From positions 1-64,000 of IMG/VR virus record IMGVR_UViG_3300025030_000046: a stretch of DNA of 64,000 nucleotides; one strand, given 5' to 3'. Source of the DNA: a virus. Each line of letters begins with the position of its first letter. The first letter of the stretch is position 1. A model generated the notes under the pieces. It saw only the letters and a list, made by a program, of their open reading frames with translations. It had not been told where the DNA came from and did not search any database. Position numbers and translations under genes: made by a program. This document shows positions 1,215-63,700 of this stretch, piece after piece.

Positions 1215-1337
1215 ATGTTTGAAACTTTGATGAGATTGTATTTGGAAGGAAAGATTGATGAAGTTAAATTAGGCATTGCAGTAACAAAGGGCTGGATAAA
1301 TGAAGAGCAGAAACAGGAGATATTAGTAACAATATAA
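1215..1337 (+). CDS. XkdX-family small phage protein
   Basis: Not in the ORF track; my translation is MFETLMRLYLEGKIDEVKLGIAVTKGWINEEQKQEILVTI, with the AV.KGWI..EQ..EI pattern typical of XkdX. Confidence 0.75.
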   Translation: MFETLMRLYLEGKIDEVKLGIAVTKGWINEEQKQEILVTI

Positions 1338-1380
1338 AACAAAACTTTTAATTAAAAATATAAAATGATTCCCAATTTTA

Positions 1381-1415
1381 AAACAGCTTCTTGTGAAAAT
1401 GAGAGGTTGTTTTTA
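1381..1415 (+). terminator. Probable Rho-independent terminator
   Basis: aaacagcttctt...gagaggttgttttt stem-loop with T tract. Confidence 0.55.
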
Positions 1416-1501
1416 TTTTGTAAACCCAAGGGATATCCCTTTTTATATAAAACAAGTTAGCTTTTTTGCTGATGGATGTTAAATGAAGGGAGTGGGTCTT
1501 A

Positions 1502-59788: not shown

Positions 59789-60459
59789 ATTGACCTCCAG
59801 TTTTATATTTTGTTTCAATAAATTTCAGATTCTATTATAATTCTTAATTAAAATAAATCTGTAAATTCCATTACCTTACAACCTTCAAATTCTGCTCCTT
59901 TTTGTGTATTATTTGCCTGTAATTGTTCTTTTTGTTCGATGAAAAAATAAGGATATTCCAAATACGTTTTATTATCTATGTCATCAACATTGTAACCCAA
60001 AGTATTTACATAATTAATTACTTGTTGACACTGATTTTCGTCCGTGACATGTATTGCTATTTCTCCATTTTTAAAATTTTCTTCTAAAAACCTATTATTC
60101 ATATAATTACGCTCCATTTTACATATCAAATTTAGTATTTATTTAAAACGCTGTACTTCTTTTTATATTGTATTTGCTTAATATGTCATTTAACTTTGTT
60201 ACATGCTCGCTATTTCCATCCATACCACCTAACTCATCGTCAATATATCCATAGCACATATCAATTAAATATTGCAGATCTTCGTTATCTACTTTTAACT
60301 TAGCTATTATTTCTTTATCGTTGGCTATTATATTACTCGTAGAAAAATCTTTAAATGTCATCACTGGCTTTCCTTCTTTATTTGATATAGTCATCTCGCA
60401 TCCATCTTTTATTTTAAATTTATCTATCATACTATCTCCTTTCTGTATTAATACAACGT

Positions 60460-60782
60460 TCATTTAATTGCATTTTTAGCATCTTGCTCACACATAAACA
60501 CTGTCTTATTAATTTCATCACTATCTATCTCAATATGACCTTCACAATAACTGTAAGAATCAAATTTAAACATAAATCCACTATTAGATATAAATCCACT
60601 ATTAGATATAAATCCACTATTAGATATAAATCCACTATTAGATATAAATCTTATTTCAATAACTACACCAGAATAAACACTAGCTAAAAATCGCCATCTG
60701 CCACAAGTTCATTGTCTTCTTCGGCACAATAAAACAATTTAGTACCAATTTGTATTGGAAGATCTATTAAATAATTTAACAT
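60460..60782 (-). pseudogene. Hypothetical ORF with (FISNSG)x4 repeat, broken by a 1-nt indel near 60686-60690
   Basis: MLNYLIDLPIQIG...ADGDF then stop; one extra T continues LASVYSGVVIEIR-(FISNSG)4-FMFKF...AIK*. Confidence 0.55.
60572..60650. repeat. 18-bp tandem repeat ATAAATCCACTATTAGAT, 4.4 copies
   Basis: Exact copies at 60572, 60590, 60608, 60626; partial at 60644. Confidence 0.95.
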
Positions 60783-63700
60783 TTTTTTTTCTTACCTTTC
60801 TATGAATTTTAGTTTTATTTTATTTTGTAAATTATTTCATAGTTATTTACCATGTCATCAATATATTTAACTGGAATATTAAAATATCTAGGTGGTAAAC
60901 CCAAACTCTTAATATATGGGTTATCGTCCATTATGTCTATAGCATACTCTGTTTTAATATTTATGTGATCTACACTATCTTCTTCATGTTTTTCATACAA
61001 TAAATCAATAACCTCATATAATTCCATAATTATATCCCCTTAGATAAAACTTAATTTCTATTGACCTTTTACGTTTTGTTTTTGCAAAAATTGTTCAATC
61101 GTTTCTAGATTATTATTAATCTTATATTGGCTCATTATACTAAGCAAACTATCATAACCCACTCTGTATTTATTACATGTTTCTATTAATTTTATTGATG
61201 TTTTTTTATCAAATCCTGCCTTTTCAAAAAAATTATACTCTTCCATTATATCCTCCAATCTAATTAAAACTCAAATTTTATCGTATAACCTCAAACCAGC
61301 AATATGTATAATTCCATTTTTACCTCTATATCCATCAACCTCACATGTGTAATCCTTGCCGTTAGTGACATCTAGACTATGAACATATTTGCTTTTTATA
61401 AAATGCTTGCAAAACCATGTTTTAAACCTTTTTAGCATAAAAAACCTCCCTTTTTAATAAAATTCAAGTTTTGTCTACTTTATTATTGATATATTTATCT
61501 AATATTTCATCTAAATCTGGGCATATCCAATTCCATTTATAGTCACAATCTTCACAAATTAAGTTATAATCAGCTAATTGAACAAGTATATTATCGCTAT
61601 TGCATTTAGGACAATGATGTATACTACCTCTTTTAATCCCAATATCTTCATAAAATGGCATTAATCTTCTTTTACCTCTTATGATGTCATCATTCATAAA
61701 TAAACTCCTTTCTAAATAAAGTATCTCTTTCATTTAAAAATAATCATGACCCATAATTTCTGTATCAACCTCTCTAAATTGAATATTAAATGTATTTTCA
61801 ATAAGCGGTTTGATTTTTCAATGAAACATGTGGGGCAAACATCTATTACATATCCTGTTCTACAATCTCCTTCTGGATAATTACATCCTAACTTTGCATT
61901 AATATTTACTTCAGACTGTTCATAACTTTCTCTATTTGACATATCTATATTACATATGTCGCAAACAACTTTATCTATTACTTCTCTTTCTTTAATTAAT
62001 TGTGGTTCAATCTTTATAAATTTCATAGTATACCTCCATACGAAAGTTTCATTTTATATTAACTTCTTTTCTTTCTGATAATATATCCATAAACCAAAGT
62101 AAATCTTCTTTATTCCTCAATCCTCCAACAAGCTCACAAAAATCACTTCTTTGTTTAACAGATAATATATTCCAAACAGATGCAAAATCTTTAAGTAATT
62201 CGAATATACCTATAAATTGTCTTGGAAAACTAAAACTACATTCTTCTTTTGGTAATGATAATTTAAAAATAGGTAATGTTTCTCCGTTTTCATATAAATA
62301 AGATAATCTTATAGATGCTACATTTAAAATATTATAAATATTAAACTTATTATTCATAATTTTCTCCCTTTCAATAAAGTAATACTTTTATATTAATTTA
62401 CAACCATTTTTCTTTAATCTTTTGCAATCTTTTATCTTCTTCTATGGGTAAGAGACACCTTGTATCGCCATCAGCATAGCCACTATTATAAAAAACTTCT
62501 AGCATTGATATTAATATTTCAAAAGCAGTTTTAAAATCTGGAGATTTTAATAACTGTTTTAAAATATCACAACTACACCAAGCACCACAGTAATCACGAA
62601 TTTCACCATAGGTTTGCTCTATATATTTAATATCTTTGTATAATTGCTTGTATTTACTGGATAAATTTTCCATATGATTCTCCTTAAAATTTCACATTTA
62701 TTGAATCTTCTGTTTGTCACTTCTACAAGCTAATTTCTTATATTTAATTTTTATACAATTATGAGGATTTCCCTTGCATATAGAAACATCTGCTACAAAA
62801 CTATTTTCACAACATGGAGAACTACTTGGAGATTCTTCATAATAAGAACAATTACCGCCTAATCTATTCTGTGGTTTGTCTGGATTATATCTTGGTTTTC
62901 CCTTACTCATCATAAACTCCTTATAAAATTTTTCTTTTATCTAAATTCTTTTCTCACCTTTAGAAAATCTTCCATTACTTTCTGGATTGTATTCATATTC
63001 TTTGTCGCAAACAGTACACTGTAACCAAGATGCGCCATTTACGCCTACGTCATTTAGCTTACTTTTCTTAGAGAGCTTACCGTTTGTTAAAACCTTATTA
63101 CTTTCTTCATAGGTTTTTTCGGCTACTAATTTTAATTGACCACCGCAATCGCATTTAAATTTACTCATCTTCTCACCTCTTTAAACCAATCTGTGAATTT
63201 ATCTTAATTTGTATCTAATATATTCTATTACATCTTCTTGCCTATGCCAATCATCTTCCCAATACTTCGTACCCAACTCTTGTCTTATCATTCCCATAAT
63301 GCATTGAGTTTCTATCCATACTTTATATGGATTTCTTTTCTCTGGGCTGTAAGTAATCGCCATATGACAGCAGTTATAATCAACTACAATTTGAATATAA
63401 TTCTTCTCTGTCTTCAACATATCATTAAAATAATAGACTGGTTTTATAGGCTGCTTATTTGAATTATATGTTGGTTTAGGTTTCTTCCTATTAAGATGCT
63501 GAATAATTTTATCAAACATAGGATATTCATTCATATTATCACTTCTTTCTCACATTCTATTTCGTAACCTTACTCGCAGTAGGGTTACAAATTCACATTT
63601 CCATATAAAATATCCTTTTCATTTAAACTATAATTTAATATACTTTAATACAACTAATATAAATGCTAAACTATACAAAATTTTTATGCTTATTTCTAAA

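Follow-up and report, generated by a model that had tools for sequence, protein, structure and literature searches.

What is the role of a short palindrome that recurs between the accessory genes of a virus, and does it mark those genes as mobile cassettes? The question is raised by a stretch of 64,000 nucleotides, referred to here as the window, which forms the opening 64 kb of virus record IMGVR_UViG_3300025030_000046. The record is a 139,239-bp genome with a G+C content of 29.5% that appears, from its proteins, to be that of a distant SPbeta-like temperate phage. Between positions 1334 and 63622, the inverted repeat ATAAAA-N6-TTTTAT recurs at gene junctions as an array of 18-bp sites. An earlier note, made from the letters of the window, likened this arrangement to an integron and proposed that the accessory genes are cassettes shuffled by site-specific recombination; a protein-binding site and an RNA-level signal were among its alternatives. 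The analysis described here shows that the dyad is no artifact: it depends on the spacing, lies at junctions, and is specific to phages or prophages. Of the alternatives listed in the earlier note, we prefer a putative protein-binding site. The explanation that we favor, and to which we give about an even chance of being right in its entirety, is that the repeat is a symmetric site in double-stranded DNA that is bound by a dimer of a phage protein and that forms a hinge of gene exchange.

A spaced inverted repeat at gene junctions

The window contains nine exact copies of the core ATAAAA-N6-TTTTAT, compared with 0.32 expected, and none of 100 dinucleotide shuffles yielded nine. An additional 27 copies differ from the core at exactly one position and 68 at exactly two. 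As an internal control, matches to the same arms were counted at 20 other spacings (k = 0–20) and in the everted arrangement across region 3801–89400 of the genome. At k = 6, the inverted arms give 10, 48, and 150 matches with at most zero, one, and two mismatches, respectively, versus 0–3, 4–20, and 72–130 at the other spacings. The everted arms (TTTTAT-Nk-ATAAAA) give 0–3, 6–17, and 71–132 matches, with no peak at any spacing. Because the excess is limited to N6 and to the inverted arrangement, stop codons, A-runs, and T-runs cannot be its source. An excess over AT-matched sequence, on which the earlier note had made its proposal depend, is therefore borne out. The spacing control also indicates that ~95 of the 150 copies with two or fewer mismatches (3.8–89.4 kb) represent background, which leaves lone two-mismatch copies uncertain.

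The repeat is concentrated between genes. When a copy is scored as junctional if at least six of its 18 bases lie outside called genes (non-coding DNA makes up 16% of the window), all nine exact copies, 33 of the 36 copies with up to one mismatch, and 63 of the 104 with up to two are junctional. A copy with two or fewer mismatches is present at 81 of 152 minus-strand junctions, 55 of which are inside the window; together with the copies at 1334 and 3817, these agree with the approximately 60 sites claimed previously. The array continues past the window to ~89 kb of the genome and spans ~85 kb in all. The median gap between genes is 55 nt at junctions with a site versus 20 nt at junctions without one, and 30 of the 71 site-less junctions have a gap of at least 24 nt. 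The site stands once at nearly every non-overlapping junction of accessory early genes. The earlier note had seen no copies in two blocks of core genes. This holds for the replication block, in which no junction between 27.5 and 37.3 kb contains a copy with one or fewer mismatches, but not for the dut-nrdD block, which harbors one copy at 11756 whose spacer is itself the Shine-Dalgarno sequence GGGGAG.

The repeat also has a preferred register relative to the genes. In 16 of the 55 window junction sites, a stop codon occupies positions 2–4, and open reading frames (ORFs) that run into the left arm do so in the TAA frame in 22 cases and in the other two frames in 10 (binomial P = 4.5e-5 against 1/3). 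Seventeen such stops had been listed earlier: 13 belong to copies with two or fewer mismatches, the stop at 24775 belongs to a copy with three, and those at 53110, 60815, and 63199 are accompanied by a left arm only (four mismatches). The XkdX-like ORF at 1215–1337 shares this register as claimed, and the single genes said to be bracketed by two sites (10462/10658, 26418/26708, 26708/26896, and 62684/62923) are indeed so arranged. The distance from the site to the following start codon has a mode of 14–18 nt. Relative to promoters, the position of the site varies from ~-75 to ~+30.

The nine exact copies illustrate these placements. Those at 20636–20653, 26708–26725, and 57250–57267 contain an in-register stop codon, those at 18420–18437 and 21407–21424 are followed by a start codon 14 nt on, and the copy at 39069–39086 is followed by a Shine-Dalgarno sequence. 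The copy at 3817–3834 lies in a convergent gene gap, and those at 48472–48489 and 62923–62940 occupy junctions. In-register stops are likewise found in the one-mismatch copies at 1334–1351 (the XkdX-like ORF), 10462–10479, 43002–43019, 48875–48892, 49620–49637, 55338–55355, 55977–55994, and 61044–61061. The copy at 10658–10675 has a start codon 14 nt on, and that at 27416–27433 lies within a 5' leader under a sigma-A-like promoter. Other one-mismatch copies at junctions are located at 9137–9154, 10113–10130, 17324–17341, 22399–22416, 22860–22877, 37759–37776, 45607–45624, 53914–53931, 56145–56162, 61264–61281, 61457–61474, 62374–62391, and 63605–63622; the copies at 11756–11773 and 51758–51775 likewise have one mismatch. 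Two intragenic matches, at 14661–14678 and 63430–63447, are probably due to chance. Junctional copies with two mismatches start at 7491, 16041, 19334, 23379, 23872, 24565, 25391, 26418, 26896, 27079, 35020, and 39822 and, in the second part of the window, at 41797, 42821, 47194, 51512/51532, 53444, 55023, 59818, 60125, 61716, 62040, and 62684; those at 35020 and 41797, each of which overlaps a Shine-Dalgarno sequence, may be chance matches.

Symmetry of the site and its candidate reader

The two arms are related by reverse-complement symmetry, and they vary without covariation. The left-arm variant ATGAAA is paired with TTTTAT in 18 cases versus 3.4 in background, the right-arm variants TTTGAT and TTTCAT are paired with ATAAAA in 12 and 7 cases, and the compensated pair ATGAAA/TTTCAT occurs at background (2 versus 2.1). 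For a hairpin formed by the arms (six A-T pairs and a 6-nt loop), the free energy averages -0.15 kcal/mol, and 28-nt segments do not differ from random windows in minimum free energy. The arms consist of A and T only and form no stable stem, unlike the G+C-rich stem and U-run of an intrinsic terminator. Copies are also found in convergent or divergent intergenic DNA, at 3817 in the present phage and, in SPbeta, at 57147 and 128076. Symmetry in SPbeta also takes in the flanks (left, T-Y-T-R-R; right, Y-A-R-A), which extends the element to ~11-6-11 bp overall, and the outer AT dinucleotides are conserved as strongly as the A- and T-tracts. Because the symmetry exists without pairing, we infer that the site is a two-fold symmetric element of double-stranded DNA that is read by a symmetric dimer.

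The dyad is not confined to the present phage. SPbeta contains 38 copies (one or fewer mismatches) at N6 versus 3–9 at other spacings, and a hand comparison of its early region revealed an annotated stop codon at positions 2–4 in 8 of 28 copies. The SPbeta record annotates some of the copies merely as 'stem_loop'. At the same stringency, virus genomes G004 and G006b contain 38 and 52 copies per 100 kb at N6 versus 6–14 and 5–17, respectively, at other spacings, and viral contigs G001, G002, and G003 contain 6, 16, and 7 copies versus 0, 2, and 0 for reversed-pattern controls. The site is thus enriched in five viral contigs, and it is enriched in prophage islands of Bacillales genomes. Of the 49 exact copies in G011, a 4.4-Mb Bacillales genome, 32 fall on two contigs of 90 and 32 kb (121 kb together), leaving 17 in the other ~4.3 Mb; the reversed-pattern control gives 6. 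Genome G010 harbors eight copies within 50 kb, and G009 shows no excess (6 copies versus 13 in the control). Genomes that share the site span 28–36% G+C, SPbeta among them. The site is not present in L005 and L006, two relatives identified through DNA polymerase (46–59% identity; 39–46% G+C). Full-text literature searches, with the 1999 SPbeta genome paper and supplements outside their scope, returned no description of the dyad. Conserved from SPbeta to the present phage, it is apparently an undescribed hallmark of SPbeta-like temperate phages. One of the records compared, the 349-kb virus record G006, apparently joins two related phage genomes: its first 154 kb align with G004, displaced throughout by 211 bases, and 150–250 kb correspond to a second relative.

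These data bear on three explanations that do not invoke a phage DNA-binding protein. The repeat could punctuate RNA, as a termination/re-initiation or processing site or as a site for an RNA-binding protein between cistrons. It lies in transcribed gaps co-oriented with the genes, holds stop codons in register, is closely followed by Shine-Dalgarno sequences, and at 27416 occurs inside a 5' leader downstream of a promoter. Its arms, moreover, are not perfectly symmetric, which weighs against a purely symmetric reading: of 48 copies, 11 have A at position 18 and 1 has T at position 1, the corresponding SPbeta values are 13 of 28 and 3 of 28, and the asymmetry tracks gene direction. This asymmetry and the stop register could both stem from an RNA- or translation-level constraint rather than from mere packing. 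Reverse-complement symmetry, however, is meaningless on unpaired RNA, A-G and A-C pairs are tolerated without covariation, the hairpin free energy is near zero, divergent and convergent gaps hold copies, and the symmetry in SPbeta reaches past the arms; we consider an RNA-level role unlikely. A second explanation, in which A- and T-tracts separated by one turn of the helix serve to bend DNA or to bind a nucleoid or transcription protein of the host and thereby aid transcription of each gene, fits the 10-bp distance between the AAAA and TTTT centers and the presence of another A/T-rich oriented element upstream of nearby sigma-A-like promoters. It appears decidedly improbable, given that host chromosomes are poor in the site outside prophage islands (G011 and G009), that the outer AT dinucleotides are conserved like the tracts, and that the position of the site relative to promoters is variable. 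It is scarcely credible, finally, that the repeat is a functionless by-product of composition, created by a stop codon and an A-run followed by a T-run ahead of the ribosome-binding site. TAA stops and A/T-rich leaders are common in a genome this poor in G+C, but the shuffles never gave the observed count, the excess is confined to one spacing and one arrangement, and the site is conserved over the range of G+C contents noted above.

Returning to a phage protein as the reader, the site-rich islands of G011 and G010 encode a full-length YopP-like gene (E values of 6e-56 and 9e-43) together with MrpR-family genes; in 14 control genomes, the MrpR family was found in B. subtilis only. Because the sites and the YopP and MrpR genes cluster in prophage islands, the protein that reads the site is most likely phage-encoded. 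Kohm et al. list mrpR, yopQ, and yopP among the core genes and regard them as probably active in lysogeny (PMC10516654). Homologues of all three lie past the end of the window on the minus strand, at genome positions 65343–66284 (mrpR, also called yopR), 66299–67591 (yopQ), and 88257–89336 (yopP). The yopQ and mrpR genes are neighbors as in SPbeta, and the yopP-like gene lies 21 kb away, heading the minus-strand block. Comparisons with SPbeta by blastp are given with the coordinates of open frames: 65343–66308 for the MrpR homologue (28% identity to SPbeta YopR; Pfam MrpR_N_CB, 5.5e-20, and MrpR_C_cat, 4.2e-15), 66299–67603 for the YopQ homologue, and 88257–89357 for the YopP homologue (30% identity).

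As a binder, MrpR is disfavored: the ten ChAP-seq peaks reported for it all coincide with a different element, SPBRE (PMC10516654). A YonV-like protein (open frame 86234–87475, minus strand), which at 49% identity is conserved more strongly than any other protein in common with SPbeta, was also rejected, since it resembles a superfamily 2 helicase. YopP and YopQ are thereby left as candidates. YopQ has been reported to contain a ParB_N/Srx-like domain (PMC8612738); a Pfam search detected no such domain in the YopQ-like protein of the present phage. The YopP-like protein is the best candidate and is predicted to bind the site. Its fold is that of a tyrosine recombinase, and its catalytic residues follow the pattern R..K..H-x-x-K..H..Y; in all four aligned members of the family, lysine replaces the second catalytic arginine, and the tyrosine is kept. 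By analogy, YopP may resemble MrpR as a recombinase fold turned DNA-binding protein, MrpR being described as a member of this fold that lost recombination (PMC10516654). With the YopP-like protein as query, a sequence search of the PDB gave nothing useful, and a scan of the genome collection with the YopP alignment gave no match.

A second, oriented repeat, aATAAAsTAAAATATAAAA, occurs genome-wide, with window examples at 20623 (beside the dyad at 20636, where it reads TAAAATATAAAA), 27509, 37746, 50797, and 57809 (minus-strand reading). The minus block holds 74 co-oriented copies of its 9-nt core, AAATATAAA, the plus block holds 32, and 3 copies are antisense. The repeat either immediately precedes a Shine-Dalgarno sequence or sits just 5' of TTGACA-N17-TATAAT-like promoters. 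DNA upstream of the ten reported MrpR target genes in SPbeta has in common the motif ..AAAATATGTATA.., which the oriented repeat resembles and the dyad does not. Because of this resemblance, the oriented repeat is likely the operator of the MrpR homologue, a prediction that would give the present phage many more such operators than SPbeta has. A further conserved element (..gcgagtaagg..ttcagaaat..) is found at a roughly fixed distance from some dyads, at 57250-57180, 55977-55900, and 63605-63540 and upstream of 39069, 53914, and 37759.

Gene exchange at the junctions

Comparison with relatives reveals that sequence homology often changes at the site. In the mosaic relative G001, 100% homology sets in precisely with the first position of site 26708, and at site 27416 homology stops exactly past the right arm. 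The latter site and its spacer are common to four genomes (the present phage, G001, G004, and G006b), each of which has its own downstream gene. At 11756, homology with G006b begins at position 1 of the arm, and at 51758 homology with G004 stops at the border between spacer and right arm. When SPbeta was compared with Goe13, phi3T, and SPbetaL4, 11 of 29 merged breakpoints fell within 5 bp of a site versus 2.7 expected from random non-coding positions; none of 2000 draws gave 11.

Homology is one-sided in 18 of 25 site-relative pairs in SPbeta and in 15 of 30 in the present phage, and the site is kept in 16 of the 18 and 10 of the 15 relatives, respectively. In the pooled set (33 of 55 pairs one-sided), 26 of the 33 relatives retain the site. 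Spacer identity in these one-sided pairs is bimodal, with all six positions identical in 21 of 33 and three or fewer in 10 of 33; the homology switch therefore falls within an arm or at an arm/spacer border. In the present phage, neighboring genes remain linked across 0 of 37 informative junctions that bear a site versus 15 of 44 that lack one (P = 3e-5). The difference persists among gaps of at least 24 nt (0 of 36 versus 6 of 17, P = 5e-4). These alignments show that the site is the hinge where homology with relatives sets in or breaks off. Between different phages, only orthologous sites have the same spacer, which they keep while one flank is replaced; within the genome, no two spacers are identical among 1128 pairs, and their mean identity is 0.29 per base.

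On the explanation that we favor, a symmetric dimer of a phage-encoded protein, with the YopP-like protein as the candidate, would bind the site as DNA, with weaker symmetry extending the core to ~11-6-11 bp. The bound protein would most likely insulate or silence single genes in the lysogen or time their expression after induction. Because every junction carries the same arms, the recurrent arms would also supply short homology for recombination between related phages, which an annealing protein (Erf in the present phage and the Sak4-like YorG in SPbeta) could promote. Accessory genes would then be swapped unit by unit, like the PeSL elements of T4-type phages. It is also conceivable that the protein itself catalyzes the exchange.

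Several findings weigh against this explanation. In the present phage, ends of high-scoring segment pairs with G004 and G006b are mostly intergenic (78 of 134), and they are not enriched at the site relative to random non-coding positions (17 of 134 within 5 bp versus 18.5 expected). One translocated gene carries a 3' site, but in neither genome does a site mark its 5' border; a 1-kb insert found in relatives of SPbeta is flanked by a site on one side only; and some exchanged units are bordered by one site or none. Rapid turnover of accessory genes has causes of its own, and the site need not be the cause of broken linkage. The published ChAP-seq data cover MrpR only. The proposal in the earlier note that the accessory genome consists of site-punctuated units swapped at the sites therefore survives in part: the hinge is evident in relatives, and breakpoints of gene gain and loss track the site in the SPbeta family, but site-less borders occur and the present phage shows no breakpoint excess.

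The pattern could instead be produced enzymatically if a tyrosine recombinase, be it YopP-like or the Xer-like enzyme encoded at 111.8 kb, used the repeats as core sites and, by cleavage at the arm/spacer borders, inserted, excised, or swapped gene cassettes. The inverted arms and 6-bp spacer fit the geometry of such sites, as does the ~11-6-11 arrangement in SPbeta. The genome encodes four proteins of the tyrosine-recombinase fold, a type of enzyme that the earlier note had proposed to look for in the rest of the genome, and one of them exceeds the cut-off for the Xer-type family (229.9 versus 220 bits). YopP, with its tyrosine kept, is conserved alongside the sites; homology stops at arm edges or arm/spacer borders; and orthologous sites hold their spacer while one flank changes. 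Nevertheless, we regard this possibility as doubtful. Classical tyrosine recombination requires matching spacers, and since all spacers within the genome differ, the exchange between copies that had been proposed is not supported: classical enzymes cannot recombine different copies. The YopP family carries lysine at the second catalytic arginine, the Xer-like enzyme has no SPbeta match at E <1e-5, the genome lacks an integron integrase, and cassette borders without a site occur. Crossovers in 6–11 bp of arm homology explain the breakpoints equally well, and in the reported set of laboratory phi3T-SPbeta hybrids, 15 of 16 recombination sites are in homologous regions (10.1101/2020.05.06.055103). 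It is tempting to speculate about a variant, which we likewise hold to be improbable, in which the repeats are YopP core sites and each 6-bp spacer serves as an address, such that only the same junction in two co-infecting SPbeta-like phages can recombine. This would preclude scrambling within a genome and result in register-preserving, site-specific reassortment of single accessory genes.

Should the dimer of a phage protein that we favor bind the ~40–100 sites that punctuate the accessory genes, prophage control would gain a further, new layer. The sites would, if they guide exchange, provide an account, at the level of base pairs, of single-gene shuffling in this family, counter-defense genes included. 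The address variant, if true, would mean that the gene punctuation of an entire phage family incorporates a recombination system. SPbeta, a member of that family, is a model temperate phage whose lysogeny operon contains two conserved genes without a known role, yopP and yopQ.

Other observations concern individual loci. A gene for a 210-amino acid protein and its leader (53954–54620) exhibit 68–75% DNA identity to seven metagenome loci (24–27% G+C) that have nothing else in common with the phage and no N6 excess. Because the loci share only this gene and lack the dyad, it is a freely moving single gene. Four sequencing runs, all in the form of assembled contigs, were also compared. Contig joints occur mostly at the second repeated element (47940>50777, 50102>50776, and 55894>57788), and one loose contig end, at 61715, adjoins a site; we draw no conclusion from either. 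Contigs of three runs have a 6-base insertion at 54599, TTTTAT on the plus strand, which equals one arm of the dyad and lies 13 nt before a start codon.

The phage and its resemblance to known systems

Non-structural genes occupy the minus strand from 3.9 to 89.3 kb of the genome, and structural and lysis genes occupy the plus strand from 89.8 kb, a block that resumes in the first 1–3.7 kb of the record. A megablast search of a phage collection with two parts of the window gave no match and hence no close relative. Proteins common to the phage and SPbeta mostly share 21–36% identity in best local alignments, with YonV the exception; the DnaE-type polymerase, primase, terminase, and tape-measure genes each match their SPbeta counterpart. 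The window encodes a large serine recombinase of the SprA/YokA type (4320–6116, minus strand), which is likely the integrase and has no link to the junction sites. Two tyrosine recombinases with complete catalytic motifs lie among tail genes beyond the window, the Xer-like enzyme identified by profile match (111828–112820, plus strand) and a YomM homologue identified by blastp (116891–117943, plus strand). Accessory enzymes of the window include, on the minus strand, a WGR protein with a PARP catalytic domain (44385–45590), a full NAD-dependent DNA ligase (57833–59788), a radical-SAM protein (19393–20604), and the anaerobic ribonucleotide reductase NrdD (12666–13964). Three HNH endonuclease genes are located at 6834–7469, 7622–8539, and 14413–14817.

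The arrangement resembles integron arrays in that units of an ORF and a 3' site follow one another, the stop codon is often inside the site, and the genes are mostly promoterless, small, and accessory. Many cassette borders coincide with sites, but the translocated gene and the 1-kb insert have a site at one border only. In integrons, attC is an imperfect palindrome of 57–141 bp that folds in single-stranded form and is cut by a dedicated IntI encoded beside attI and the promoter Pc. Here, by contrast, the core measures 18 bp and neither folds nor exhibits compensatory changes, and the array, which is remote from all recombinase genes, extends over ~85 kb of a phage genome, with no attI/Pc platform and with internal sigma-A-like promoters. 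The four proteins of the tyrosine-recombinase fold reach at best 105 bits against the integron integrase profile TIGR02249 (cut-off of 265) and 69.9 bits against NF011946 (cut-off of 435). Because IntI, folding, and covariation are all lacking, the dyad is not an integron, and neither the membership proposed in the earlier note nor integron-type recombination is supported.

Other systems share part of the pattern. KorB and its operator OB on plasmid RK2 likewise combine one palindrome in many copies over a mobile element with an element-encoded dimer and global silencing; operators of this type are contiguous palindromes, about a dozen per plasmid, near promoters. The dif sites of Xer recombinases have two inverted ~11-bp arms and a 6-bp center and are bound by proteins of the tyrosine-recombinase fold. 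There is one dif site per replicon, with a fixed central region, whereas each phage here contains ~40–100 sites, each with its own spacer and different arm sequence; the inverted arms and a spacer within the 6–8 bp of core sites are thus present, and a partner spacer shared within the genome is not. SPBRE, described by Kohm et al. (2023) as a 15-bp oriented motif bound by MrpR in ten ChAP-seq peaks at promoters (PMC10516654), belongs to the same phage group, is a repeated intergenic element, and has its reader encoded here as an MrpR homologue; the dyad differs in being 3–10 times more numerous and not tied to promoters.

PeSL elements of T4-type phages are reported to combine a sigma-70-like promoter with a terminating stem-loop and to yield mini-circles, which were shown experimentally (Arbiol et al. 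2010, PMC2839356). As with PeSL, a short conserved motif recurs in plastic regions, where it separates non-essential genes, is missing from core blocks, and bounds insertions, deletions, and replacements between relatives. The dyad differs in being an 18–28-bp A/T element with a free spacer, no promoter at a constant distance, and no stable stem; it occurs in temperate siphoviruses of Bacillota rather than in T4-type phages. Changes bounded by the repeat are found as in PeSL (11 of 29 SPbeta breakpoints versus 2.7 expected, and linkage retained at 0 of 37 versus 15 of 44 junctions), yet without an excess over other intergenic DNA in the present phage. The nearest known counterparts of the junction site are PeSL in function, the Xer-type core site in geometry, and SPBRE with MrpR in family context.

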